This document shows, in pieces, positions 6,969 to 63,870 of a stretch of 64,000 nt of DNA. Position numbers and translations under genes: made by a program. Each line of letters opens with the position of its first letter. The first letter of the stretch is position 1. The DNA comes from Candidatus Rokuibacteriota bacterium (GTDB taxonomy: Bacteria > Methylomirabilota > Methylomirabilia > Rokubacteriales > CSP1-6): positions 292 through 64,291 of the forward strand of contig QHSA01000130.1 of the NCBI GenBank assembly GCA_003220315.1. Reading direction: 5' to 3'. The notes under the pieces were generated by a model. The model had not been told where the DNA came from, did no database searches, and saw only the letters and a program-made list of their open reading frames with translations.

Positions 6969-7551
6969 CTGCAACCTGCCGCGCGCGCTCCAGCTCCTCG
7001 GGCGTGTTGACGTTCATGAAGACGAGCGCCGGGTCGCGGTAGCGCGCGACCTCGCGCTCCGCGATCTCGACCACGCGGACGTCGTGGAAGAACTCGACGA
7101 TCTTGAGCCGCCCGGCGACGAGCCGGGCCTCGATCGCCCCGAGGCAACTCTTCGCGTAGAGGGCGTGCAGGGTCTCGAGCTGCCCACCGACGCGCGGGAT
7201 CACGACGTCGCCGGAGCCGACGCGCTCCACCACCAGGCGGACGACGTCAGCGTGGAGGAACGGCATGTCGCAGGCGACGGTGAAGGCGGCCCCGCCGGGC
7301 GCCGCCCGGAGCCCCGAGTAGATGCCCCCGAGCGAGCCGTGGTCGGGGTAGACGTCGGCGACCATCGGCAGCTTGAGGAACGCGTAGAGCTCGGGCGTGT
7401 TGGTCACGATCAGGAGGTCGTCCACCGCTGGCGTGACGGCGTCCACGACGCGCTCGATGATCCACCGACCGCCGAGCTCGAGCAGCGCCTTGGGCCGGCC
7501 GCCCATGCGCGTGCTCTTGCCTCCCGCCTGGATGACTCCCGTGACTCTCAC
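6949..7551 (-). CDS. mobA: Molybdenum cofactor guanylyltransferase
   Basis: GVIQAGGKSTRMG...LPMVAD. The C-terminus (...SME stop) is encoded by the repeat. Confidence 0.85.
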   Translation of the reverse strand: MRVTGVIQAGGKSTRMGGRPKALLELGGRWIIERVVDAVTPAVDDLLIVTNTPELYAFLKLPMVADVYPDHGSLGGIYSGLRAAPGGAAFTVACDMPFLHADVVRLVVERVGSGDVVIPRVGGQLETLHALYAKSCLGAIEARLVAGRLKIVEFFHDVRVVEIAEREVARYRDPALVFMNVNTPEELERARQVAAHLSME

Positions 7552-8694: not shown

Positions 8695-9959
8695 GCCGGT
8701 CTCCTTCGCCCGATGTCCCTCCGGTAGTGCATCCCCTCGAAGCGGATCGCCCCGACCGCGCCGTAGGCGCGCGCGATGGCGGTCGCGAGGTCGCCGGCCA
8801 CCGCGGTGACGCCGAGCACACGGCCGCCCGCCGTCACGAGGCGCCCGTCGCGGAGCGCCGTGCCCGCGTGGAAGACCGTCACGCCCGGCGCCGTCTCGGC
8901 GGACTCGACGCCCTCGATCGCCGCACCGGTCCCGTACTTGCCAGGATAGCCGCCGGAGGCGAGCACGACGCACACGGAGGCCCGCGTGGGCCAGGGACCC
9001 ACCTCGGGCCACGGACCGCCGTGGGCGGCCGCGACGAGCAGCGGCACGAGATCGCCGGGGACGCGGACCACGAGCGCCTGGCACTCCGGGTCACCGAAGC
9101 GGCAGTTGAACTCGATGACCTTCGGCCCCTCGGCGGTGAGCATGAGCCCGACGTAGAGGACGCCTCGATAGGGCGCGCCGTCCTTGGCGAGCGCCGCGAT
9201 CGTCGGCCGCACGATCGTGTCCATCACCCGGCGCTCCATCGCCGCGTCGAACGAAGCCACCGGCGAGTAGGCGCCCATGCCGCCCGTGTTCGGGCCCTGG
9301 TCGCCGTCGAAGACAGTCTTGTGGTCCTGGGCGGCGGCGAGCGGCAGCGCGTCGGCGCCGTTGGCGAGCGCGAAGAACGAGACCTCCTCCCCCGACAGGA
9401 ACTCCTCGACGACCACCGTCGCGCCTGCCGCGCCGAAGGCCGCGCGCTCCATGCACTCGGCGACGGCCTCGTCGGCGTCGGCGAGGGTCCGGCAGACGAT
9501 CGCGCCCTTGCCTCCGGCCAGGCCGTCCGCCTTGACCACGAGGGGCGGGCCGACCTCGCGGCAGTAGCCGCGGGCGCGGGCGGGGTCGGCGAAGGTCGCG
9601 AAGCGCGCCGTCGGGATCGCGTTGCGCGCCATCAGGTCCTTCGCGAACGCCTTCGAGCCCTCGATCGCGGCCGCCGGGGCGATCGGACCGAACACCGCGA
9701 GGCCCGCGTCGAGGAGGCGATCGGCGAGGCCGGCGACGAGCGGCGCCTCCGGCCCCACCACGGTGAGGTCGATCCGCTCGCGCCGAGCGAACGCGACGAG
9801 ACCGTCGAGCGCGTCGGCGGTGAGCGGGACGCACACCGCGTGGCGCGCGATGCCGGGGTTGCCGGGTGCCGTGAACAGCGCCGTGACGCGCGGGCTCTGG
9901 GCGATCTTCCAGGCGAGCGCGTGCTCGCGGCCGCCCCCGCCGACGATCAGCATCCTCAT
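8691..9959 (-). CDS. purD: Phosphoribosylamine-glycine ligase
   Basis: MRMLIVGGGGREHALAWK...; overlaps the purE start by 4 nt. Confidence 0.95.
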   Translation of the reverse strand: MRMLIVGGGGREHALAWKIAQSPRVTALFTAPGNPGIARHAVCVPLTADALDGLVAFARRERIDLTVVGPEAPLVAGLADRLLDAGLAVFGPIAPAAAIEGSKAFAKDLMARNAIPTARFATFADPARARGYCREVGPPLVVKADGLAGGKGAIVCRTLADADEAVAECMERAAFGAAGATVVVEEFLSGEEVSFFALANGADALPLAAAQDHKTVFDGDQGPNTGGMGAYSPVASFDAAMERRVMDTIVRPTIAALAKDGAPYRGVLYVGLMLTAEGPKVIEFNCRFGDPECQALVVRVPGDLVPLLVAAAHGGPWPEVGPWPTRASVCVVLASGGYPGKYGTGAAIEGVESAETAPGVTVFHAGTALRDGRLVTAGGRVLGVTAVAGDLATAIARAYGAVGAIRFEGMHYRRDIGRRRPA

Positions 9960-10002
9960 TGGAGCGGCGCCCGCGCGGCCGCGGCATTCGGTGGCTGGCC
10001 TG

Positions 10003-53202: not shown

Positions 53203-54696
53203 ATGACATTCAGGGAAGGTACTCGCGAAGTCGATGCCGGGGCCACGGCTGCCGCTCCGGGCGCGGTCACCAGCCCCGAAGAGCCCGAGACGCCCGTCGC
53301 CCTCGGAGAGGAACCCGAGGACACCCCGCGACCCGAGCCCCTGGAGGCCGGCGCGGCTCCGCGTGGTGAGGATCCGGTCCGCCTCTATCTCAAGGAGATC
53401 GGCAAGGTCCACCTGCTGACCGCCGCCCAAGAGGTCCAAATCGGTCGTCGAATCGAGGTGGGCCAGATCGCGCTCCGCCGCACGCTGGCCGGCATCCCGA
53501 TGGCCGTCGAGACGCTCCTCGAGGTGAGCGATCGGCTTCGCCGGGGCGAGATTCCCCCCGACGACGTCATCGTCCTGGCGGAGGGAGGCGAGCTGGACGC
53601 GAAGCAGCTGCGGCCGGTGCTGCTGGCCTTCGGGCGACTCCGGAGGCTCCAGCGGAAGATCGCGGAGCTCCAGGATTCGTTCGGCGACAAGCGCCGGTCG
53701 AAGGCGAGCCGGACCATCCGAGCGAAGGCGATCGCGGCGGCCCACGAGGCAATCCAGAAGGTCGTGGCCGACCTGCCGCTCAAGCCGGCGCTCGTCGATG
53801 ACGTCGTGGCCCAGGTCCGCGGGCGCTGGGAGCGCATCAGCCAGCTCGCTGAGGAGGCGCGCCGGAACCAGCCTACCGCCGGCCGCGAGCTCCGGGAGCT
53901 CGAGCGGGCCGTCGGCCTGCCGCGCCGGCAGCTGGGCCAGCTCCTCGAGCAGATCGAGCAGAGCGACCGCACGGTGCGTCAGGCCAAGCGAGAGCTGATG
54001 GAGGCCAATCTCCGACTGGTCGTCTCCGTGGCCAAGCGCTACCTGGGCAGCGACCTGTCGCTGCTCGACCTCGTCCAGGAGGGCAACATCGGGCTCATGA
54101 AGGCCGTCGACCGGTTCCAGTACCGTCGCGGCTTCAAGTTCTCGACGTACGCGACGTGGTGGATCCGCCAGGCCATCACGCGAGCGATCGCCGACCACTC
54201 GCGCACGATCCGGATCCCCGTCCACATGGTCGAGACGCTCAACCGGATCTCCCGGGTGAACCGCGGCCTCGTCAACGAGATGGGGCGCGAGCCCACGCCG
54301 GAAGAGCTCGCTCAGCGGACCGGCGTGCCGGCGAAGAAGGTGCGGCTCATTCTGGAGTCGTCGCGGAAGCCCCTGTCGCTCGAGACACCGATCGGCGAGG
54401 ACTCCGAGCTCGGTGACTTCCTCGAGGACAAGTCCGCCGGCTCGCCGAACGAGTCGCTCCTCAACCAGGACCTGACGACGCAGGTTGAGCGGGCGCTCTC
54501 TACGCTCTCGCCCAAGGAGAAGGAGATCCTGCGCCTGCGGTTCGGCATCGGCGAGGAGGGCGAGCACACCCTCGAGGAGGTCGGCAGGCGCTTCGCGGTC
54601 ACGCGTGAGCGCATCCGACAGATCGAGGCCAAGGCGCTCCGAAAGCTGCGGCACCCGCTGCGCGGCCGCAACCTTCGCGCCTTCGTCGAGAACTAG
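53203..54696 (+). CDS. rpoD: RNA polymerase sigma factor RpoD (sigma-70)
   Basis: Acidic N-terminus; region 2 [37 protein letters not shown]; region 4 [29 protein letters not shown]. Confidence 0.95.
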
Positions 54697-54701
54697 TCAG
54701 C

Positions 54702-54732
54702 ATCGGGGGGAGCGAGCGCCGCTCCCCCCGAT
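54702..54732. terminator. 13-bp perfect GC stem-loop (atcggggggagcg-agcgc-cgctccccccgat) between the convergent rpoD and the DinB_2 operon
   Basis: Direct inverted repeat with no U-tract, so likely a factor-assisted or GC-type terminator. Confidence 0.55.
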
Positions 54733-54817
54733 ACCCCCCACCCGTCACCCGCGGCGGTGCGCCCGCACCTCGGTTGCGCGGGCGAAGCCCGCGCTCGAAG
54801 GCGCCCGGCCTCCGCGG

Positions 54818-55327
54818 CTACGACTGCCCAGTCTTGGTCAGGAGGTAGGAGTTCATGCCCGTGTCAGGCGGTGAGCCGCTGATCATCGTGATCATCGTCG
54901 CGATCTCGCTCCGGTGGTGGGTGGCGTGGTTCGGCACGTGCTGGAGTAAGGGCCAGAGCGTGAGCCGGAAGGACTTGGTACCCTCCGTGTTCTTGTACTC
55001 GACCACCCGGTCGAGATCGGCCGACCTCAGCCCCTCGACGAAGGCCCCCTGCTCCCGCTCGAGGTCATCCCACGGCGCCCGGATCGAGGCGAGCGTCGGG
55101 AACTCGGCCCCGGGCAGCCTCGTCGGCGACAGCCCTTTCCAGCGCGAGAGCCAGACCCAGTCCGCGCCGTAGAGGTGCCCGAACATCCGCTTGACGGTCG
55201 GGAAGCTGAACTGGGTGCCCACCTCGCGCGACGCGAGGTCTTCGCCGAGCGCCGCCGCGACGTCGAACAGCCGCCGGTTCGCCCACCGATGATAGTCGTA
55301 GAGTCCCCGGATCGTCTCGACGCTCAT
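54818..55327 (-). CDS. DinB/YfiT-like (DinB_2) metal-dependent protein
   Basis: LYDYHRWANRRLF...HLYGADWVW...HVPNHATHHRSEI (His-triad pattern typical of DinB_2). Confidence 0.75.
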   Translation of the reverse strand: MSVETIRGLYDYHRWANRRLFDVAAALGEDLASREVGTQFSFPTVKRMFGHLYGADWVWLSRWKGLSPTRLPGAEFPTLASIRAPWDDLEREQGAFVEGLRSADLDRVVEYKNTEGTKSFRLTLWPLLQHVPNHATHHRSEIATMITMISGSPPDTGMNSYLLTKTGQS

Positions 55328-55337
55328 CGAGCCTTCC

Positions 55338-55553
55338 CTACTCCAGCACGGCGACGACGTCGCCCTCCTGGACGGTCTGACCCTCCTGGACCTTGATCTC
55401 CTTGACCGCGCCCGCCCGCGGTGCCTCTACGGGGATCTCCATCTTCATGGACTCGAGGACGATCACTGCGTCGCCGGCGGCAACCCGCTCGCCCGGCCTC
55501 GCGGCGATCTGGAACACGACCCCCGTGATGTGCGCCTTGATCTCCTCAGCCAT
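55338..55553 (-). CDS. Stand-alone biotinyl (biotin carboxyl carrier) domain protein, 71 aa
   Basis: ...AVIVLESMKMEIPVEAP... carries the biotinyl-lysine MKM motif; overlaps the biotin carboxylase stop. Confidence 0.8.
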   Translation of the reverse strand: MAEEIKAHITGVVFQIAARPGERVAAGDAVIVLESMKMEIPVEAPRAGAVKEIKVQEGQTVQEGDVVAVLE

Positions 55554-56893
55554 TGAACGCTCCTTGTTCGATCATCTGCGTGTGCACCCGTCCCACACGG
55601 AACGCGTCGCTCGCGAGGGGGCGACGGAGGAACGGCACCGTCGTTTTCACGCCCTCGACGCGCGCGCGCTCGAGCGCCGCCGCCATCCGCTCGATCGCCT
55701 CGGCGCGCGAGGCGCCGCGGGTGATGAGCTTGAACAGCAGCGGGTCGTCGTGGATCGGGACCGTGCTGCCCGCCTCGACGCCGGACTCGATCCGGATCCC
55801 CTCGCCCGAGGGCCGCTCGAGCCGTTCCACCCGGCCTGGCGAGGGCAGGAAACCTTTCGCTGGGTCCTCAGCATACACTCGGCACTCGATCGCGGCGTAG
55901 CGCGGCGCGATCTCCTCCTGGCGCCAGGGCAGCCGCTCGCCCGCGGCGACAAGGAGCTGCGCCACGACGAGGTCGAGCCCGGTCGCCTCCTCGGTCACCG
56001 GGTGCTCGACCTGAAGCCGCGTAGTCATCTCGAGGAAGTAGAAGCCGCCCGCCGTGTCCACGAGGAACTCCATCGTCCCCGCGTTGACGTAGTCGATCAC
56101 CCGTGCTCCCGCGACCGCCGCGCGCGCGAGGCCATCTTTGATCGTCGGCGCCAGATTCGGCGCCGGCGACTCCTCGACCAGCTTCTGGTGGCGACGCTGG
56201 ATCGAACAGTCGCGCTCGTGGAGATGGACGACGGTTCCCGCGCCGTCGCCGAACACCTGGATCTCGACGTGACGCGGGCGCTCGAGGTAGCGCTCGACGT
56301 AAACGTCGGGCCTACCGAACGCGGCCTGGGCGCGCCTGGTCGCCATGGCAAACGCCGTGGGCAGCTCCCCGGCCTTGTCCACCCGCGCCATGCCGATGCC
56401 TCCGCCGCCCGCCGCCGCCTTGAGCATGACCGGATATCCGATCTCGCAAGCCACCCGCTCGGCCTCGACGGCATGGGCCGTTGTCTCATGGCTCCCCGGC
56501 ACCACCGGCACTCCGGCGGCGGCCATGAGCCGCCGCGCCTCGGTCTCGTCGCCCATCCGGCGGATCGCGTCGGGTGACGGGCCGACGAAGGTCAGGCCCG
56601 CGCGCTGACACGCTTCGGCGAATCGCCAGTTCTTGGACAGGAAACCGTATCCGGGATGAACCGTATCGGCGTGGCTCGCGCGCGCCTGCCTCGAGGATCC
56701 GGTCAATGCTGAGATGGCTCTCGCGAGCCGGCGCCGGGCCGATCGCCATGGCCCGATCGGCGTCCCTGACATGGAGCGACTCGCCGTCGGCCTCGGAGAA
56801 GACGGCGACGGTCCCGAGGCCCAGCCGCCGGCAGGCGCGGAACACGCGCCGTGCGATCTCCCCCCGATTCGCAACCAGGACGGTACGAATCAA
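55546..56893 (-). pseudogene. Biotin carboxylase (AccC-like) interrupted by a +1 frameshift at a GCGCGCGCG run near 56672-56685; could be a sequencing error
   Basis: The N-terminus [21 protein letters not shown]...[33 protein letters not shown] lies in the frame of ORF 56486..57136. The remainder ([20 protein letters not shown]...EMTTRLQVEHPVTE...) lies in the frame of ORF 55546..56874. The span from the coupled TTG start to the stop is 1348 nt, not a multiple of 3. Confidence 0.7.
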
Positions 56894-57876
56894 TGACGCG
56901 GAAGAGCGGGTCGAAGCACCTCGATCCGGCCGACGTCGAGCAAGGCAACGCGCCAGCCGTCCGGCCCCGGCGCCCACCGGGCGAGGACCGTGACCGCGGC
57001 GTCGGGCCCCTCGAGCCGCCACTTCACGAGGCGCTGGTGCCCGAGCCTCGCAAAGGCGACGAGACGCTGGCTCGTCAGCGTCGCCCCGGTGAGCGCGTCG
57101 CGCGCGGGGTCGGGCGAGACGCCAGCCGCGAGCCAATGAGCGACCGCCGCCAGATTCCGTGCGCGCAGCGATTCGCCGAAGGAGTCGAGGGCCTCGCGCA
57201 GGTCCTCCGGCATCGGCCAGCTCGCCACGGGCCTCTCGAGCCGGACGAACTCGCGCGCGTCGTCGCTCGTTTCGATCGGCGTCTGGGCGGTGTCGGGTGG
57301 AGCCGGCGGTAACCCCTCGCCCGTCACCCCACCAGCCGCCTCGACCAACGCCTCGAGCCTTCGCTGCCAGGCGAGCACACGCTCCGCGAGCGCCGGGGCG
57401 CAGAGATGGCCGAGGACGGTTTCGCCGGCCGCGATGTGCCGCCGCTCATCGTCAATGCATCGCAGGAGAAGGCGACGCGTCGGCGGCTCGTAGACCGGGT
57501 TGGCCCGGACCAGATGATCGTGGTAACTCGACAGGAGGTGTGGCTTGAGGACCCGGTAAACACCGACCAGCCGCTCGACGGTCTGCCCGGGCGCCGCCGG
57601 CTCCTCGACGGCGTCCATGAAGGCGACGACCCGCTCGCTCGCCGGCTCCGAGACCTGGGTGTGGGCGCGCAGCTCGGGCAGGCGCCTGCCGAACGCGTCC
57701 GCCTGCTGGGCGAGGTCCCAGACGTGACGCCCCATCAGAAGCTTCGCGGAGAGCTCGGGCGTGAGAGCAATCCAGCCGCCCAGGGCCCGCATCGCCCGCT
57801 CGACGGCGTAGCGATAGTTGCGCATCAGGCGGGCGGAGTGGTCGACCGAGAAGTGGCCCGCGAGCGGGTGCGCCAC
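56890..57876 (-). CDS. Hypothetical protein, possible di-iron / haem-oxygenase-like oxidase (ExxH motif IDDERRH)
   Basis: 328 aa of protein-like composition; its stop overlaps the biotin carboxylase TTG start (TTGA). I cannot place the family from memory. Confidence 0.5.
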
Positions 57877-57879
57877 GCG

Positions 57880-58635
57880 CTAGTAGACCTGCGACCGTTG
57901 GGTCGTCCTGACGAGGCGCTCGATCTCCTCTTCGGTGAAGCCGGCCATGCGCCGGACGTCCGTCGCGATGGAGATCGACACGGCCTCGTGGTCCCCTTCC
58001 CGCCGGACCCCGCCGAGGTTGAAGCGCTCATCGATGGTTTCCTGAAACTCGATCGCCTTGCGCCGGCGCTCGGGATCCCCCTCGGTGAGCTTCGTGAGCC
58101 ACTTGGACCCCATCCGGACGTGGGTGATCTCATCGGCGAGGACGAACTCGACGGCGCGCTCGAGGATCGGGTCGCCGATCTTCCGCGCGATGTGGACGAG
58201 CTGGTTGAAGACGTCGCACGCGAGCCCCTCGAGCCCGCGGTTGACGCCGGCCACGCGCGCGGCGGCGTCCTCGGCGCAGGCGCAGCGCCAGAGGATCGTG
58301 GTCTCGGGGAACTCGCCGGGATACCCGCCCAGATGCTCGAGGAGGCGCAGGTAGATCTCGACGTGGCGCGACTCGTCCCAGACCTGGCGCGCCATGTCCA
58401 TCGTGAACTCCCATGGCACGTCGGGGAAGTCGCAGACGGTCCGCCCCGCGCCCTCCATCGCCTGCATCTCACCCACGAGGATCCCGTGGACGCGCTCCCG
58501 GATCGAGTCCGGGGTCGAGAGATCGGCGAACGGCGGGAACCCCTGCGCGACCTTCAGCTCCGCGACCTCGCGGGCGCGCATCCGTATCCACCGGTCTTCC
58601 CGCGCGAGCTTGTCGTAGGCGATCGGGCGCTCCAT
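57880..58635 (-). CDS. Ferritin-like di-iron carboxylate protein (DUF455-like)
   Basis: Two E...ExxH motifs (WDESRHVEIY and ADEITHVRMG) in a ~250-aa protein. Confidence 0.6.
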   Translation of the reverse strand: MERPIAYDKLAREDRWIRMRAREVAELKVAQGFPPFADLSTPDSIRERVHGILVGEMQAMEGAGRTVCDFPDVPWEFTMDMARQVWDESRHVEIYLRLLEHLGGYPGEFPETTILWRCACAEDAAARVAGVNRGLEGLACDVFNQLVHIARKIGDPILERAVEFVLADEITHVRMGSKWLTKLTEGDPERRRKAIEFQETIDERFNLGGVRREGDHEAVSISIATDVRRMAGFTEEEIERLVRTTQRSQVY

Positions 58636-58724
58636 CGGAACTCTCCCCGCGAGAAATGAATCGCTGTTCAGCGAGTCTACCCGAAGCGGCCGGCCGATGG
58701 CAAACCGGTACCCCTGGGTACGGA

Positions 58725-59681
58725 CTACCCGTGGAAGGTCTGACGCCCCTCGCTACGGTTCCACAGGCGGATCAGGTGGCGCTTGAGATGGGGCTCTCCG
58801 GCGTCCTGGAACGCGGTACGGCTGTGGGCGACCGACAGGTTGTCGAGGTACTGGATCTGGCCTCGCTCGACGGTGAACTCGACGCGGAGCTCGGGCGATT
58901 CGGCGATGGCGCGCATTGCGACCAGGGCCTCTCTCCCCTCGGGGTCCAGCGGCGTGCCGGTCAGCGCCTCGGCATTCACGACCAGCGCCTCGTTGTGGCG
59001 GGCCACGAGGTCGCGGCCATCAGAGCGGAACATCGCCCGCCAAGCGACCTTGTCGTCACCAGGCGCGTGCTCGGCCTGCCGGTCCCAGGGGAACGGACGA
59101 TAGAACCGTGGGAGGAGGTCGGGATGCCGGCGCTGCAGCTCGTTATGCACGGTGGCGAGGCTGACGACCTGGCTCACCCCGCCCTCACGCGCTGGATTCA
59201 GACAGTAGAGCCCGACCCGCTCGGGAGGCAGGGCGAGCCACGGAGCGTCGGTATGGAACTGGAGCTCCAGGTTGGTCACGGAGCGGCGCACCCCGTATTC
59301 GAGCGGCTTCCCCGTGTCCCTGACGTCGTAGATCATCGTGCCGTCCCATTTTTGCGCGACCGGCCGGCCGAGCAGCGACCCCAGCAGCCAGTAGAGTGCG
59401 CGATTCTCCTCCACCGAGAAGCGCTCCACCGGGATGCGGTCGACCACGGCGAGGCCGACGCCGCGGCGCAGTTTGTGATCCACGGCGGTCATGACCGATG
59501 CGCAGGCGGACAGGGCGAACTGCGTCGGCGCGAGGAGCAGGAGCGGGAGCGGATCCCGGCGAAGCTCGCGGAGCGCTCCCTCCAGCTCGTCGAGAGCGTC
59601 CGGCGGGAAGGGCACCATCCAGTCGGACTCCGAGATCGTGCCCCGCATCCAGGCACGGTGGCCACGAATCTCGGGAGCGAG
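58725..59681 (-). CDS. TauD/TfdA-family Fe(II)/2-oxoglutarate-dependent dioxygenase
   Basis: LQFHTDAPW (HxD facial-triad) plus a distal His; GTG start after a GGAGA SD (alternative ATG at 59648). Confidence 0.8.
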   Translation of the reverse strand, partial: LAPEIRGHRAWMRGTISESDWMVPFPPDALDELEGALRELRRDPLPLLLLAPTQFALSACASVMTAVDHKLRRGVGLAVVDRIPVERFSVEENRALYWLLGSLLGRPVAQKWDGTMIYDVRDTGKPLEYGVRRSVTNLELQFHTDAPWLALPPERVGLYCLNPAREGGVSQVVSLATVHNELQRRHPDLLPRFYRPFPWDRQAEHAPGDDKVAWRAMFRSDGRDLVARHNEALVVNAEALTGTPLDPEGREALVAMRAIAESPELRVEFTVERGQIQYLDNLSVAHSRTAFQDAGEPHLKRHLIRLWNRSEGRQTFHG

Positions 59682-59734
59682 CACGACGGTCTCCAGCGGT
59701 CGCCTCGGCGCTATACGTCGCTCCTCGCGAGCGA

Positions 59735-60928
59735 TTAGGTGGACGGGATTATATCGCCCTTGCGCGGCAGGAGGGTCGCGGGGATCACGGCGCCCTCGCC
59801 GAAGCGCGCCGTGAGTCGGTCGATCACCCGCGCGAGCCGCTCGCGGCGCACGGCGTGGGGATCGAAGAGCCCGAGCTGGCCCACTCCCGCGGGTCCGAGA
59901 CGCCCGGCCGAGATGCCGATGAGGCGCACCGGGCGCGTCACCCGCTCGCGCTCCAGGAGTCCGCGCGCCCGGCGGTAGAGCTCGAGCCCGTCCTGCGTCG
60001 GCGCCCCGGTAGCGCTCCGGGTGTGCGTCTCGAAGGGCGCCAGCCGGAGCTTGAGCGTGACGCACGCCGCCGCGAAGCCCCCTTCCCGCAGCTCGGCGGC
60101 GACCCGCTCTGCCTGGGATCGAAGCGTCGTCCGGAGGAGGTCGGGGTCCGTCGAGTCAGTGCCGAAGGTTTCCTCGGCACCGACCGATTTCGGAAGACCG
60201 AAGGGCTCGACAGGTCGGGCGTCACGACCGAGGGCGAGGTCGTGCAGGTGCTCGCCGTGCTTCCCGAAGCGTCTGGCCAGCACGGAGCGCGGGACACTCT
60301 GGAGCCGGCCGATCGTGGTGAGGCCGAGCTCTCGGAGGGCCTTCGCCGTCACACGCCCGACACCCCAGATCAGCTCGACCGGGAGCGGGGCGAGAAAGCG
60401 GGCCTCCCCGCCCGCCGCGACCGCGACGAGGCCGTCAGGCTTCTCGAGCTCGGAGGCGACCTTCGCGACGAACTTGTTCGACGCGAGACCGGCCGAGGCG
60501 GTGAGGCACGTCTCCTCTCGGATCCGCCGCTTGATCGCGCGCACGGCGTCGAGTGCACTCCCGAAGAGCCCCTCGGTCCCGGTGAGATCCACAAACGCCT
60601 CGTCGACCGACACGGGCTCGACGAGCGGCGAGAAGTCGGCGAGCATGCCCATGACCTGCACGGAGACGGCCCGGTACTTCGCCATGTCCACCGGGAGGAA
60701 GGCGGCGTGGGCGCAGAGCCTGGCGGCGCGGGAGATCGGCATCGCCGAGCGCACCCCGAATCGGCGCGCTTCGTACGACGCCGCCGAGACCACGCCGCGC
60801 CCCTTCGGGTCGGCGCCCACGATGACCGGCCGTCCCCGCAATTCGGGCCTGTCGCGCTGCTCGATCGACGCGTAGAACGCGTCCATGTCGACATGCGCGA
60901 TCGCGCGAGGCGTATCTGGCCGGGCCAC
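59735..60928 (-). CDS. dinB: DNA polymerase IV
   Basis: IAHVDMDAFYASIEQRDRPELRGRPVIVG... (Y-family polymerase N-terminus). Confidence 0.9.
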   Translation of the reverse strand: MARPDTPRAIAHVDMDAFYASIEQRDRPELRGRPVIVGADPKGRGVVSAASYEARRFGVRSAMPISRAARLCAHAAFLPVDMAKYRAVSVQVMGMLADFSPLVEPVSVDEAFVDLTGTEGLFGSALDAVRAIKRRIREETCLTASAGLASNKFVAKVASELEKPDGLVAVAAGGEARFLAPLPVELIWGVGRVTAKALRELGLTTIGRLQSVPRSVLARRFGKHGEHLHDLALGRDARPVEPFGLPKSVGAEETFGTDSTDPDLLRTTLRSQAERVAAELREGGFAAACVTLKLRLAPFETHTRSATGAPTQDGLELYRRARGLLERERVTRPVRLIGISAGRLGPAGVGQLGLFDPHAVRRERLARVIDRLTARFGEGAVIPATLLPRKGDIIPST

Positions 60929-60932
60929 GGCG

Positions 60933-61496
60933 TCACGCCCGGGCGAGGCCGATGTCCGGGGCGACGGCGGTCAGCGCGCCGATGACGAAGGCGATGTGCG
61001 CGTCGAGATCGACGCCGAGCTCGGCGGCGCCGCGGTAGACGTCGTCGCGGTTCACGGTGCGCGCGAACGCCTTGTCCTTGAGCTTCTTCCTGACCGACGG
61101 CGGCTCGAGCCCGGTGATGGTGCGACCGGGGCGCACGAGCGCCACCGCGTGGACGAAACCCGACAGCTCGTCGCACGCGTACAGGGCCCGGTCGAGGAGT
61201 GAGACGCGCGGCATCCCGGAATAGTCGGCGTGGGCCAGGACCGCGTACACGATCCGCTGCGGTACGCCGCGCGCCAGGAGAATCTCGGCGCCCTTCACGG
61301 GATGGTGCGGGGCGCGCGGGTGCATCTCGTAGTCGAAGTCGTGGAGCGTGCCCGCCGCACCCCACGTGTCTGGATCCTCGCCGTACTTCGCCGCGTAGGT
61401 GCGCATCGAGGCCTCGACGGCGCGGGCGTGCTTGCGGAGGCTATCGCTCTTCGTGAACTCGGTGAGGATCGACCAGGCGAGCTCGCGCGGGATCAC
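60933..61496 (-). CDS. HD-domain metal-dependent phosphohydrolase
   Basis: ...GTLHDFDYEMHPRAPHHP...; GTG start overlapping the HTH gene stop (GTGA); the ATG given in the track at 61523 is the alternative. Confidence 0.7.
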   Translation of the reverse strand: MIPRELAWSILTEFTKSDSLRKHARAVEASMRTYAAKYGEDPDTWGAAGTLHDFDYEMHPRAPHHPVKGAEILLARGVPQRIVYAVLAHADYSGMPRVSLLDRALYACDELSGFVHAVALVRPGRTITGLEPPSVRKKLKDKAFARTVNRDDVYRGAAELGVDLDAHIAFVIGALTAVAPDIGLARA

Positions 61497-61672
61497 GTCC
61501 GCCGCTGCTGCTGGCTCCGCCACTTGTCGATCGACTTCTTCGAGAAGACCCAGCGTCCCTCGAGCTGGAGCGACGGAATGCGGCGCTCCGTCGCCAGGCG
61601 CACGAGGGTAGTCTCGTCCATGGCGAGGTAGGTCGAGGCTTCCTTGAGGCTCAGGACGTCCTTCGGAGTCAC
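61493..61672 (-). CDS. Small (59 aa) excisionase-family HTH DNA-binding protein
   Basis: [54 protein letters not shown]; GTG overlaps the cysE stop (GTGA) and is preceded by GGAGGAGGAG. Below the track's length cut-off. Confidence 0.55.
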
Positions 61673-62331
61673 CGGCGCTCCTCCTCCGTCTTCTTACGCA
61701 GCGTCTCGAGCTCGGCTTCCAGCACGCGGATCCGCTCGACGAGCTGCTCGATCGCCTTGCTCACCGGGTCCGGGAGGTCCGTCTGGTTCAGGTCGATTTC
61801 CCCGGCCACCCGCTGACCGTCACGGTATGTTACCCGGCCCGGAACACCCACCACAACGGAGTTCGGCGGCACTTCGCGAACGACCACGGACCCGGCGCCG
61901 ATGCGGCTGCCGTCGCCGATCCTGAACGCGCCGATGACCTTGGCGCCGGCACCGACGACGACGTTGTCGCCGAGGGTCGGGTGGCGCTTCTCACGCTTGA
62001 GACTTGTCCCGCCCAGTGTCACGCCCTGGAGCAACGTGACGTTCGCGCCCACCTCAGCGGTCTCCCCGATCACGACGCCCATGCCGTGGTCAATGAAGAG
62101 ACCGGGACCGATCGTCGCCGCCGGGTGGATCTCGATGCCGGTGATGAACCGCGCGACGTGCGAGATGAGGCGCGCCGTCGTGAGCCACCCGTGATCCCAG
62201 AGCCAGCGGGCCCGCCGGTGGAAGACGAGGGCATGCACGCCCGGATAGCACAGCAGCACTTCGAGCGCCGACCGGGCGGCCGGGTCACGCTCGCGCACCG
62301 CCCGGATGTCGCGGCGGAGCGCGTCAAACAC
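61669..62331 (-). CDS. cysE: Serine O-acetyltransferase
   Basis: ...[28 protein letters not shown]... (hexapeptide repeats). Confidence 0.9.
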
Positions 62332-62704
62332 CGCGTCGTCCTCGGCTCAGGTGGTCGCGGGCCGCGGCCCGGAGCGCTCCCGCCACGATCTCGGCAGAGT
62401 GCTTGCGGTCCTCGGGCAGCCACTCGAGCGCCCCCTCGACCTCCTCCGCCTTGAGCTGGCAGAGATCGTCCACGGTTCGCCCCCGGCAGAGCTCGCTCGC
62501 GGCGCTCGCGGCCGCGATCGTGGGGCCGCACCCGTACGTCTGGAAGCGCACCTCGACCGCCCGGTCGTGTTGCACCCGCAGGAAGAAACGCGCGAGGTCG
62601 CCGCAGCCGACGTACTCGTCCTCGCCGACCCCGTCGGGGTCACGCATGAGGCCCGCGTTGCGCGGGTTGAGGAAATGGTCCACGAGCGTCGGGCTGTACC
62701 TCAT
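62324..62704 (-). CDS. Fe-S cluster assembly scaffold (IscU/NifU N-terminal-type)
   Basis: [18 protein letters not shown]...GCGDLARF...[14 protein letters not shown]; ATG overlaps the nifS stop. Confidence 0.85.
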
Positions 62705-63870
62705 GCGGCGCCGACCGGCATCACTTGCCGCAGCTTCCGCACCAGCGGCTCCACGCACTCGATCACGTAGTCGATGTCCTCCGCCGTCGTCGTGCGCCCA
62801 AGCGAGCAACGCACGGCGCCCATCGCCCAGTCGAGCGGGACGCCCATCGCCACGAGCACGTGCGAGGGCTCCACGTTGCCCGCCGTGCACGCCGACCCCG
62901 CCGACACCCCGATGCCCTTGAGGTCCAGCCCGAGGACGATGGATTCCGACTCGACGTGCCGGAAGAGGAAGCTCGCCGTCCCGGGCAGCCGCTCGACGGG
63001 GTGGCCGGAGAGCCGCACGTCCGGCACGGGGCCGACAACACCGTCGATCAGGCGGCTCCGCAGCGCGGTGAGGCCCTCGGCCTCGGCGTGCATGTCGCGC
63101 GCCCGCACGTCCACCGCCTTGCCGAGGCCGACGACGCCCGCCACGTTCTCGGTGCCCGCGCGCCGCCGCCGCTCGTGCTCGCCGCCGTGCTGGATCGCGA
63201 CCATGCGGGTGCCCTTGCGGACGTAGAGGCCGGCGACGCCCTTCGGGCCGTAGATCTTATGGCTCGAGAACGACAGCGCGTCGATCCCGAGGGCGTCGAC
63301 GTCGAGCGGGATCTTGCCAAAGGTCTGCACGGCGTCGACGTGGAGCGGAACCCCGTGCTCGCGCGCGACCTGCCCGATCGCGGTGATCGGCTGGAGCGTC
63401 CCCACCTCGCTGTTGGCGTGCATGAGGCTGATCGCGATCGTGTCGGACCGGATCGCACGGCGGACGTCGTCGGGGTCGACCATCCCGTACGCGTCGACGC
63501 CGACGTAGGTGACGTCGAACCCCTGTGCCTCGAGCGCCTGGCACGTGCGGAGCACGGCGTGGTGCTCGACCTTCGACGTGATCAGATGCCCCGTGCCACG
63601 CGCGTACGCGAGCCCCTTCACCGCAAAGTTGTCCGACTCGGTCCCGCCCGAGGTGAACACGATCTCCTGCGGCGAGACACGGAGGAAGCGCGCCACGCGT
63701 TCGCGCGCGCGGTCGAGGCCGTCCCGCGCCTCGCGGCCGAAGGCGTGGATGCTCGACGGGTTGCCGAAGACCTCGGCGAAGTACGGAAGCATCTCGGCGA
63801 GGACCTCCGGGTGGACCGGAGTGGACGCGTTGTGATCGAGGTACACGCGGTTCATTCGGTTGCTCTCCAT
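62701..63870 (-). CDS. Cysteine desulfurase (NifS/IscS)
   Basis: ...SFSSHKIYGPKGVAGLYVR (PLP-Lys) ...SAGSACTAG (active-site Cys loop). Confidence 0.9.
   Translation of the reverse strand: MESNRMNRVYLDHNASTPVHPEVLAEMLPYFAEVFGNPSSIHAFGREARDGLDRARERVARFLRVSPQEIVFTSGGTESDNFAVKGLAYARGTGHLITSKVEHHAVLRTCQALEAQGFDVTYVGVDAYGMVDPDDVRRAIRSDTIAISLMHANSEVGTLQPITAIGQVAREHGVPLHVDAVQTFGKIPLDVDALGIDALSFSSHKIYGPKGVAGLYVRKGTRMVAIQHGGEHERRRRAGTENVAGVVGLGKAVDVRARDMHAEAEGLTALRSRLIDGVVGPVPDVRLSGHPVERLPGTASFLFRHVESESIVLGLDLKGIGVSAGSACTAGNVEPSHVLVAMGVPLDWAMGAVRCSLGRTTTAEDIDYVIECVEPLVRKLRQVMPVGAA

Follow-up and report, generated by a model that had tools for sequence, protein, structure and literature searches.

The window analysed here, a 64,000-nt stretch of contig QHSA01000130.1 from a Candidatus Rokuibacteriota bacterium, carries a run of six open reading frames (ORFs) that an earlier note had described as one tightly coupled operon of unclear function. 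All six ORFs were found at the positions given there, on the minus strand, and searches with Pfam and NCBIfam profiles bore out the family assigned to five of them: a TauD/TfdA-family Fe(II)/2-oxoglutarate dioxygenase (TauD; 58725–59684, 319 aa, GTG start), a DUF455 ferritin-like protein (57880–58635, 251 aa), a biotin carboxylase (BC; 55546–56893, TTG start), a minimal biotinyl carrier protein (55338–55553, 71 aa) and a DinB-family protein, a predicted four-helix metalloprotein (54818–55327, 169 aa). The sixth product, a 328-aa protein (56890–57876), matched no Pfam or NCBIfam model, and its reading as an oxygenase in its own right with an ExxH motif did not hold (see below). Four of the five gene junctions were as described, namely a 3-nt gap between DUF455 and the 328-aa gene, a TTGA in which the TTG start of BC overlaps the TGA stop of the 328-aa gene, an 8-nt overlap between BC and carrier and a 10-nt gap between carrier and DinB; the fifth was not, as TauD and DUF455 are separated by 89 nt with a promoter-like site inside.

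Scanning a single genome from each GTDB species with a DinB alignment gave 95 relatives, and analysis went ahead with the best 80 loci (relatives' loci and contigs compared with the window carry L-numbers, such as L001). The window proteins were run against these 80 loci by tblastn, and 61 loci had enough upstream sequence to be informative. The complete order DUF455–partner–BC–carrier–DinB, in which the partner is the 328-aa protein, was present in 47 of the 61 informative species loci, and two further loci held the same cassette with the partner gene fragmented. Since the same five-gene order is found in 47 loci, its recurrence is far beyond chance. The coupling is also as tight elsewhere as had been proposed for the window, with median junctions of +4, −8, −8 and +11 nt across the 47 loci. 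Median identity to the window was 83% for both DUF455 and the carrier, the most conserved genes of the cassette, followed by BC (70%), DinB (64%) and the partner (51%). The conserved core is a predicted five-gene operon, so far seen only in Methylomirabilota (Rokubacteria). With the 328-aa protein, DinB and DUF455 as queries, homologue searches filled up with Rokubacteria sequences, and homologues with source names came almost entirely from Candidatus Rokubacteria, Rokuibacteriota or Methylomirabilota; only a 50%-clustered library reached other phyla. Likewise, the best 80 loci are Methylomirabilota metagenome-assembled genomes (MAGs), save for a few records that are probably mis-binned. Labels that look like binning errors are those of L020 (Thermoplasmata archaeon), L022 and L075 (both Binatia) and P0407 (Anaerolineae), all with DinB-family genes 60–81% identical to the window's; L020, L022 and L075 also hold carrier and rpoD homologues that are 76–97% identical.

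TauD is a clear member of its family (PF02668, E = 1.2e-32, 114 bits against a cut-off of 27), with the facial triad H144-T-D146 (HTD, residues 144–146) plus the distal histidine H287, and among solved structures it comes closest to FrbJ, a phosphonate-tailoring hydroxylase (5eqn; E = 1.3e-27, residues 4–315). Its gene was found only in L013 and L017 (2 of the 61 informative loci, among the 80 species loci), the window's two closest relatives, and in near-identical population contigs. It is most probably a recent clade-specific insertion between the DNA polymerase IV (Pol IV) gene and the cassette, with its own upstream context and outside the conserved unit. The survey thus bore out, for five of the genes, the recurrence that the earlier note had asked about and removed TauD from the set. 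It bears equally on the function suggested there, a six-gene hydroxylation/carboxylation pathway with three iron oxygenases and a possible link to thiols or sulphur: TauD, DUF455, BC, carrier and DinB are all confirmed family members, which counts in its favour, but TauD is absent from 59 of the 61 loci and a promoter stands between it and the cassette. We return to this pathway as further evidence on its parts appears.

The promoter in question, TTGCCA-18-TAGACT (58674–58703, minus strand), is the sole sigma-70-like match in 54500–60100, where 0.3 would be expected, and is followed upstream of DUF455 by the operator-like palindrome GCTGAACAGCGATTCATT (58655–58672, minus strand). When the DUF455 upstream regions of 56 loci were aligned, a conserved TTGCCN-17/18-TACACT followed by the palindrome emerged, with the phylum consensus GCTGAACAGCGGTTCATT and the core TGAAC-N4-GTTCA. 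GAAY-N4-RTTC lies 31–45 nt 5′ of the DUF455 start in 44 of the 56 loci, the exact GAAC-N4-GTTC in 35 and the full TTGNNN-17/18-TANANT plus palindrome in 31; the window's own core carries one mismatch (GAACAGCGATTC, 58657–58670). The operator matrix (≥17 bits) matched only this position in 1.39 Mb of Rokubacteria DNA, and the motif had a single match in the 64-kb window. Upstream of Pol IV, cinA and the DinB paralogues no second operator site was found, extra exact matches falling within coding sequence. In L048 (Rokubacteria CSP1-6, LDXP01000004.1, 9560–9760), a deletion has taken out DUF455, the partner gene and most of BC. It starts just beyond the −10 element, with half of the operator spared, and stops ~100 nt short of the end of BC, and the promoter now reaches an intact carrier and DinB only. 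Because this deletion joins the promoter to carrier and DinB, one promoter with a palindromic predicted operator probably serves the whole unit. The palindrome is missing from L036, L038, L049, L050, L041, L061, L066 and L078, which have a TATAAT-type −10 instead (~100 nt upstream of DUF455), and L038, L049 and L050 are also without BC; some lineages seem to have changed how the cassette is regulated.

The core of the palindrome is identical to the Cheo-type LexA box of Firmicutes and Actinobacteria, GAAC-N4-GTTC (PMC4951493), of which the cassette offers one instance per genome region examined. The half-sites TGAAC and GTTCA are also those predicted for BioQ, the actinobacterial TetR-type biotin regulator, with N4 spacing in the cassette as against TGAAC-N3-GTTCA for BioQ (PMC3398298). 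The cassette might accordingly be read as a damage- or stress-inducible, SOS-type unit bound by LexA, in which DinB and the ferritin-like proteins would be protective (against metal or oxidative stress, or in metabolite or cofactor repair) and would not form a pathway. It suits this reading that the box sits just downstream of the −10 element, that the cassette adjoins the Pol IV gene in many loci and that the DinB family takes its name from a damage-inducible Bacillus gene. Against it, no second box occurs in the 1.39 Mb of Rokubacteria DNA, not even upstream of Pol IV, the half-sites also match the predicted BioQ site at a different spacing, and BC and carrier have no obvious stress role; lexA and recA were also looked for in this DNA, and neither was found. 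We consider an SOS-type cassette rather unlikely, and as a statement about regulation it could be compatible with the explanation that we favour below. A riboswitch or other known RNA in the leader was also considered and dropped, as no Rfam family matched there. The only match was a weak one to the AS1726 small RNA (56512–56589, plus strand; 26.6 bits against a gathering threshold of 50, E = 0.52), antisense within BC, which is almost certainly due to chance.

DUF455, to our knowledge a widespread ferritin-like family without an assigned function, scored 99.4 bits against a cut-off of 34.3 (PF04305). The window protein, the presumed di-iron catalytic subunit, carries E56/E60, E88xxH91, E136 and E169xxH172 on four helices, a complete predicted set of di-iron ligands, and its ratio of non-synonymous to synonymous changes (pN/pS) of 0.00–0.08 (0.05 against L003 and 0.00 against L006) denotes purifying selection. 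A DUF455 match in the Protein Data Bank (PDB) to Crov588 was discarded as spurious, Crov588 being a leucine-rich repeat protein, and the one match on a plasmid, from Geobacillus and located between transposases, was uninformative.

The AlphaFold model of the 328-aa protein (pLDDT 84.6) has two domains, an N-terminal ferritin-like domain (residues 1–190; 57307–57876, minus strand) and a C-terminal NTF2-like domain of the SnoaL/KSI/AtzH type (residues ~205–320; 56917–57264, minus strand). In the AF2 secondary structure, residues 205–320 form an alpha+beta cone of three helices followed by a four-strand curved sheet; this part has no Pfam match, and its top Foldseek matches are AtzH, an NTF2-like protein and ketosteroid isomerase. 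For the N-terminal domain, a search of 1.84 billion cluster representatives (the 50%-clustered library) uncovered two forms outside Rokubacteria, specifically a stand-alone protein of ~200 aa and an N-terminal fusion to DUF455 (408–550 aa; named sources Chloroflexota and Bacteroidota). In L012 (4295–7360), from a lower-GC organism, a stand-alone gene for this domain overlaps the downstream DUF455 gene; a 183-aa unannotatable ORF and an alpha/beta hydrolase gene come next, with no BC, carrier or DinB at the locus. One fusion was modelled and gave a single compact body (pLDDT 87.7, pTM 0.87). Across 21 fusions the di-iron ligands E268, E300, H303, E382 and H385 are invariant and E349 is kept in ≥90%, all in the DUF455 half, and the N-terminal half has no invariant Glu or His. 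The ExxH of the 328-aa protein is invariant within Rokubacteria only, as in the wider family E144 is kept by 25 and H147 by 17 of 45 sequences.

The N-terminal domain is therefore best described as a putative partner subunit of DUF455 without a conserved metal site, and the count of three non-haem iron oxygenases in the earlier note was one too many; the structural model of the 328-aa protein, for which that note had suggested a fold search, shows a ferritin-like and an NTF2-like domain. Because other phyla carry this domain and DUF455 in a single polypeptide, the two proteins are expected to form one enzyme. Judging from sequence and model, this would be a di-iron oxygenase resembling PaaA/PaaC or the alpha/beta subunits of monooxygenases, to which the partner adds an NTF2-like pocket. 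The likeness to the PaaA/PaaC epoxidase core and to the alpha and beta subunits of phenol hydroxylase, ToMO and sMMO lies in the pairing of a catalytic subunit with a homologue devoid of a metal site; it holds at the fold level only (7–17% identity), and the cassette proteins differ in being much smaller (251 + ~190 aa) and in the NTF2-like domain of the partner. The fusion gene adjoins a 90–95-aa 4Fe-4S ferredoxin in two unrelated contigs (L094, 1963–5197; L095, 6001–7529), which fits a redox enzyme. L094 also holds a tandem pair of fusion paralogues, with sugar ABC permeases and a GH106 enzyme alongside. Fusion contexts in other phyla are heterogeneous (PfkB/DeoC, melibiase, GH106 and URO-D neighbours) and offer no clue to the substrate.

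The BC gene was found to be broken in the window. Its repaired translation matches Biotin_carb_N, CPSase_L_D2 and Biotin_carb_C (E = 3e-40, 7e-67 and 2e-35, respectively); the best PDB match of BC has E = 5e-138. The N-terminal ~70 codons and the remainder lie in different frames, and there is one extra base at 56687 (+1) relative to L001, L003, L004 and L006, whose DNA is 98.7–99% identical. Aligned with 50 orthologues and E. coli AccC, the repaired protein deviates at seven columns that are otherwise invariant, including the catalytic changes K116E (56545–56547) and N290T (56023–56025), and five of these seven substitutions are unique to the genome of the window. All 50 orthologues keep K116, K159, H209, K238, E276, E288, N290, R292 and R338 (E. 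coli numbering). Given the frameshift, K116E and N290T, the five further changes and an elevated pN/pS (0.40 against L003 and 0.71 against L006), BC in the window is in all probability a decaying pseudogene of a family that is predicted to be functional elsewhere, and labelling it accC would be wrong. A programmed frameshift was rejected, as four near-identical contigs are without the extra base and K116E and N290T are also present. Sequencing error is unlikely to be the sole cause of the lesions, since invariant sites carry substitutions and independent MAGs show clean deletion scars.

BC lesions recur among the relatives. L004, from the same population, has two 1-nt deletions in BC, and in at least six species-level lineages (L013, L017, L038, L049, L050 and L053) BC is deleted or broken, the scars being read directly. 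Specifically, L013 retains ~100 nt of the 5′ end and ~70 nt of the 3′ end, L017 only scraps, and L049 and L050 only the last ~20 nt, with an AAGGAG ribosome-binding site for the carrier; L038 has internal deletions, and L053 a frameshift and a small deletion. L087 (9900–10010) has gone further, with BC and most of the carrier lost and DUF455, partner and DinB remaining; a carrier scar, GDSIIVSESTKMEIN (...SESTKMEIN, then a stop), lies between the partner gene and DinB. The same 596-nt BC deletion (window 56022–56617), with a CGC microhomology junction, is seen in two near-identical contigs of different assemblies, L001 (9256–9258) and L007 (1399–1401), and L005 has a 100-N scaffold gap (7259–7358) exactly at that site; whether this is a real segregating allele or a recurrent assembly problem is ambiguous. 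In the long-read MFD assemblies, BC is frameshifted in L030, as are the partner gene and DinB in L089; these frameshifts look like long-read indel errors and were left out of the gene-loss counts.

The carrier contrasts with BC in this respect. It is a well-defined biotinyl domain (PF00364, E = 1e-18; NCBIfam PRK05889, 88.1 bits against a cut-off of 75), its predicted biotinylation motif ESMKMEI is invariant in 50 of 50 orthologues, and it is identical in the window, L003 and L006. Even against L013, where BC is deleted, it shows 12 synonymous and 2 non-synonymous changes (pN/pS 0.05). BC thus appears dispensable and the carrier not, and it follows that this BC would not be the only housekeeping accC of these genomes. 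In the window's genome, where BC is frameshifted and changed at two catalytic residues, a carboxylation pathway of the kind proposed in the earlier note could not run from this operon alone.

BC and carrier could in principle be the housekeeping accC and accB of fatty-acid synthesis, and the best NCBIfam names for BC are indeed acetyl-CoA carboxylase biotin carboxylase subunit models. BC nevertheless scores below every accC equivalog cut-off (555.1 bits against 626.5 for TIGR00514, 570 against 597 for PRK08591, and below all other accC models), and the carrier reaches 30 bits against 115 for the TIGR00531 biotin carboxyl carrier protein (BCCP) model, with 71 aa in place of an AccB of ~150 aa with an N-terminal domain. 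These sub-cut-off scores, the minimal carrier, the reversed order of BC then carrier and the dispensability of BC, frameshifted in the window and lost repeatedly elsewhere, together indicate that the pair is most probably not housekeeping accBC, a possibility that we regard as very remote. The earlier note had also judged the pair non-canonical, and a plain accC/accB with neighbours unlinked in other genomes, which it named as the finding that would overturn its view, is not what the survey encountered. Its statement that the operon holds no carboxyltransferase partner stands as well: we found none there and recognised none by eye among the window's called genes, which were not scanned with profiles. 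Taken jointly, the five-gene architecture, regulation as one unit, the pseudogene and the distinction from housekeeping accBC are conclusions that we hold with high confidence.

DinB was matched by PF05163 (E = 6e-13, 49.5 bits against 23) and by PF12867, DinB_2 (E = 4e-7, 31 bits against 24.8). H13, H51, D56, H130, H134, H137 and H138 are invariant in 21 orthologues and include putative metal-binding histidines, and a pN/pS of 0.16 (L003) and 0.24 (L006) denotes purifying selection. The gene almost always comes next after the carrier, and the two form the most persistently retained pair of the cassette. Directly after the carrier it is tandemly duplicated in 14 of the 80 loci (triplicated in L065), the extra copies being 49–60% identical to the window DinB; the loci are L021, L027, L028, L034, L037, L061, L065, L066, L077, L079, L086, L088, L090 and L092, with copies at 9480–9977 and 10001–10477 in L090, for example. 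The Pfam matches and the invariant histidine set liken the protein to the DinB/YfiT-like metalloenzymes (Bacillus DinB, the bacillithiol and mycothiol S-transferases and the N-terminal domain of EgtB), whereas no sequence similarity to solved members is detectable and no thiol-cofactor genes lie nearby. We know of no described association of this family with a biotinyl carrier.

A thiol or sulphur role, as raised in the earlier note, has the DinB fold and the synteny with cysE-iscU-nifS upstream in this clade to point to, and nothing else; genes for a helix-turn-helix (HTH) protein, an HD-domain protein and Pol IV intervene. Moreover, this synteny is missing at loci where a Liv-type ABC transporter precedes the cassette, and many loci retain the cassette with the sulphur-gene order disrupted. 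With TauD an insertion, the third supposed oxygenase without a conserved metal site and BC probably non-functional in this genome, the six-gene and three-oxygenase parts of the proposed pathway are largely refuted, and we think the pathway as a whole highly improbable.

What the five conserved genes might do together can be outlined as follows. The biotinylated carrier would act as the swinging arm of a biotin-dependent carboxylation or decarboxylation, and its catalytic client would be the neighbouring DinB metalloprotein, possibly together with the NTF2-like pocket; DinB is named here because the pair of carrier and DinB survives deletions and no carboxyltransferase is encoded in the operon. 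The di-iron pair would oxidise the same small molecule before or after this step. Where BC has been lost, another cellular biotin carboxylase may charge the carrier in trans, or the carrier may act independently of any BC, in the decarboxylase or transcarboxylase direction. Alkene and ketone assimilation, in which a di-iron monooxygenase is followed by a carboxylase, would provide a precedent for the logic of such a scheme, not for its proteins. We put the probability of this explanation as a whole at roughly 40%. The particular chemistry, an oxidation combined with biotin-dependent carboxylation or decarboxylation of a small molecule, is a tentative proposal and on balance rather doubtful. 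More speculative still is the idea that carrier and DinB, with or without the NTF2 pocket, constitute a new class of biotin-dependent enzyme coupled to the DUF455 di-iron oxygenase, with DinB in place of a carboxyltransferase; we consider this quite unlikely.

Several points weigh against the scheme. We know of no carboxyltransferase with a DinB or NTF2 fold, and a conventional carboxyltransferase could be encoded elsewhere in the genome; Rokubacteria genomes measure 6–8 Mb. The modules have been lost separately, with the ferritin-like pair absent from L048 and L062, BC and carrier from L087, and DinB alone in L045 and L052, so obligatory coupling does not follow. The whole neighbourhood is syntenic across the phylum, so adjacency by itself makes functional linkage look stronger than it is. 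The Rokubacteria cassette includes no reductase, ferredoxin or effector gene, the Fer4 ferredoxin being confined to the two contigs from other organisms, and no account of what DUF455 (COG2833, PF04305) does, or of this gene combination, came up in the searchable literature.

The separate losses count in turn towards another explanation, in which an ordinary multi-subunit acyl-CoA carboxylase, similar to YngH/YngHB of Bacillus, would include BC and the 71-aa carrier as its alpha-type components, with the transferase encoded elsewhere and with the ferritin-like pair and DinB on the same transcript but doing an unrelated job. BC is a typical biotin carboxylase, judging from its PDB match and the catalytic residues intact in 50 of 50 orthologues, and carriers of 70–71 aa are a recognised NCBIfam class (PRK05889, PRK08225). 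A stand-alone ATP-grasp BC followed by a 70–71-aa biotinyl domain with MKM is the arrangement shared with the YngH/YngHB type, the PRK05889/PRK08225 carriers and the mycobacterial 71-aa biotinyl protein. The cassette differs from these carboxylases in having no adjacent carboxyltransferase gene, in the DinB gene downstream and in a BC that is dispensable while the carrier is kept. Repeated deletion of BC with the carrier under strong purifying selection would be odd for a single enzyme unless another BC substitutes. Unrelated jobs are also hard to square with the overlapping junctions, with a single promoter serving the entire unit throughout the phylum and with carrier and DinB still adjacent after the large deletion in L048. 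We hold an ordinary carboxylase to be possible but on balance unlikely. In the lineages without BC, the small carrier may instead be compared with those of the biotin-dependent decarboxylases (oxaloacetate, methylmalonyl-CoA and glutaconyl-CoA) and with the 1.3S subunit of transcarboxylase, which likewise work without a BC; unlike these systems, the cassette has no homologues of a carboxyltransferase or of the membrane beta subunit.

Whichever explanation holds, the cassette brings members of known families together in a way for which the searchable literature has no earlier description. DUF455 would work with a second, metal-site-less ferritin-like partner to which it is fused in other phyla, and in one phylum it is locked in an operon with BC, a minimal carrier and DinB behind a conserved predicted operator. 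The cassette is thus a testable handle on three poorly understood families and the first structural and genomic handle on DUF455. Recurrent, scar-leaving loss of BC with the carrier retained amounts to a natural genetic experiment on how the carrier is used, and it points to a carrier that fulfils its role independently of its own carboxylase. The cassette may also hint at a non-canonical partner for biotin-dependent chemistry; if DinB were indeed that partner, it would add a fourth structural solution to those by which biotin hands on a carboxyl group, and DUF455 would gain its first function.

Finally, the cassette is chromosomal and lies in a syntenic housekeeping region, since the window (G+C content 68–75%) otherwise holds core genes, among them nusA-infB-rbfA, rpsO-pnp, purL/Q, tsf-rpsB, dxr and ispG (recognised by eye from N-terminal translations). 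It is convergent to rpoD and lies downstream of nifS-iscU-cysE-HTH-HD-Pol IV. The conserved block at 59735–63870, also seen in the upstream parts of L001 and L009, comprises hscA-fdx-iscX, a divergent DsrE-like trio, nifS-iscU-cysE, a 59-aa HTH_17 gene, the HD-domain gene and the Pol IV gene. The HTH_17 gene overlaps both of its neighbours and is a candidate regulator.

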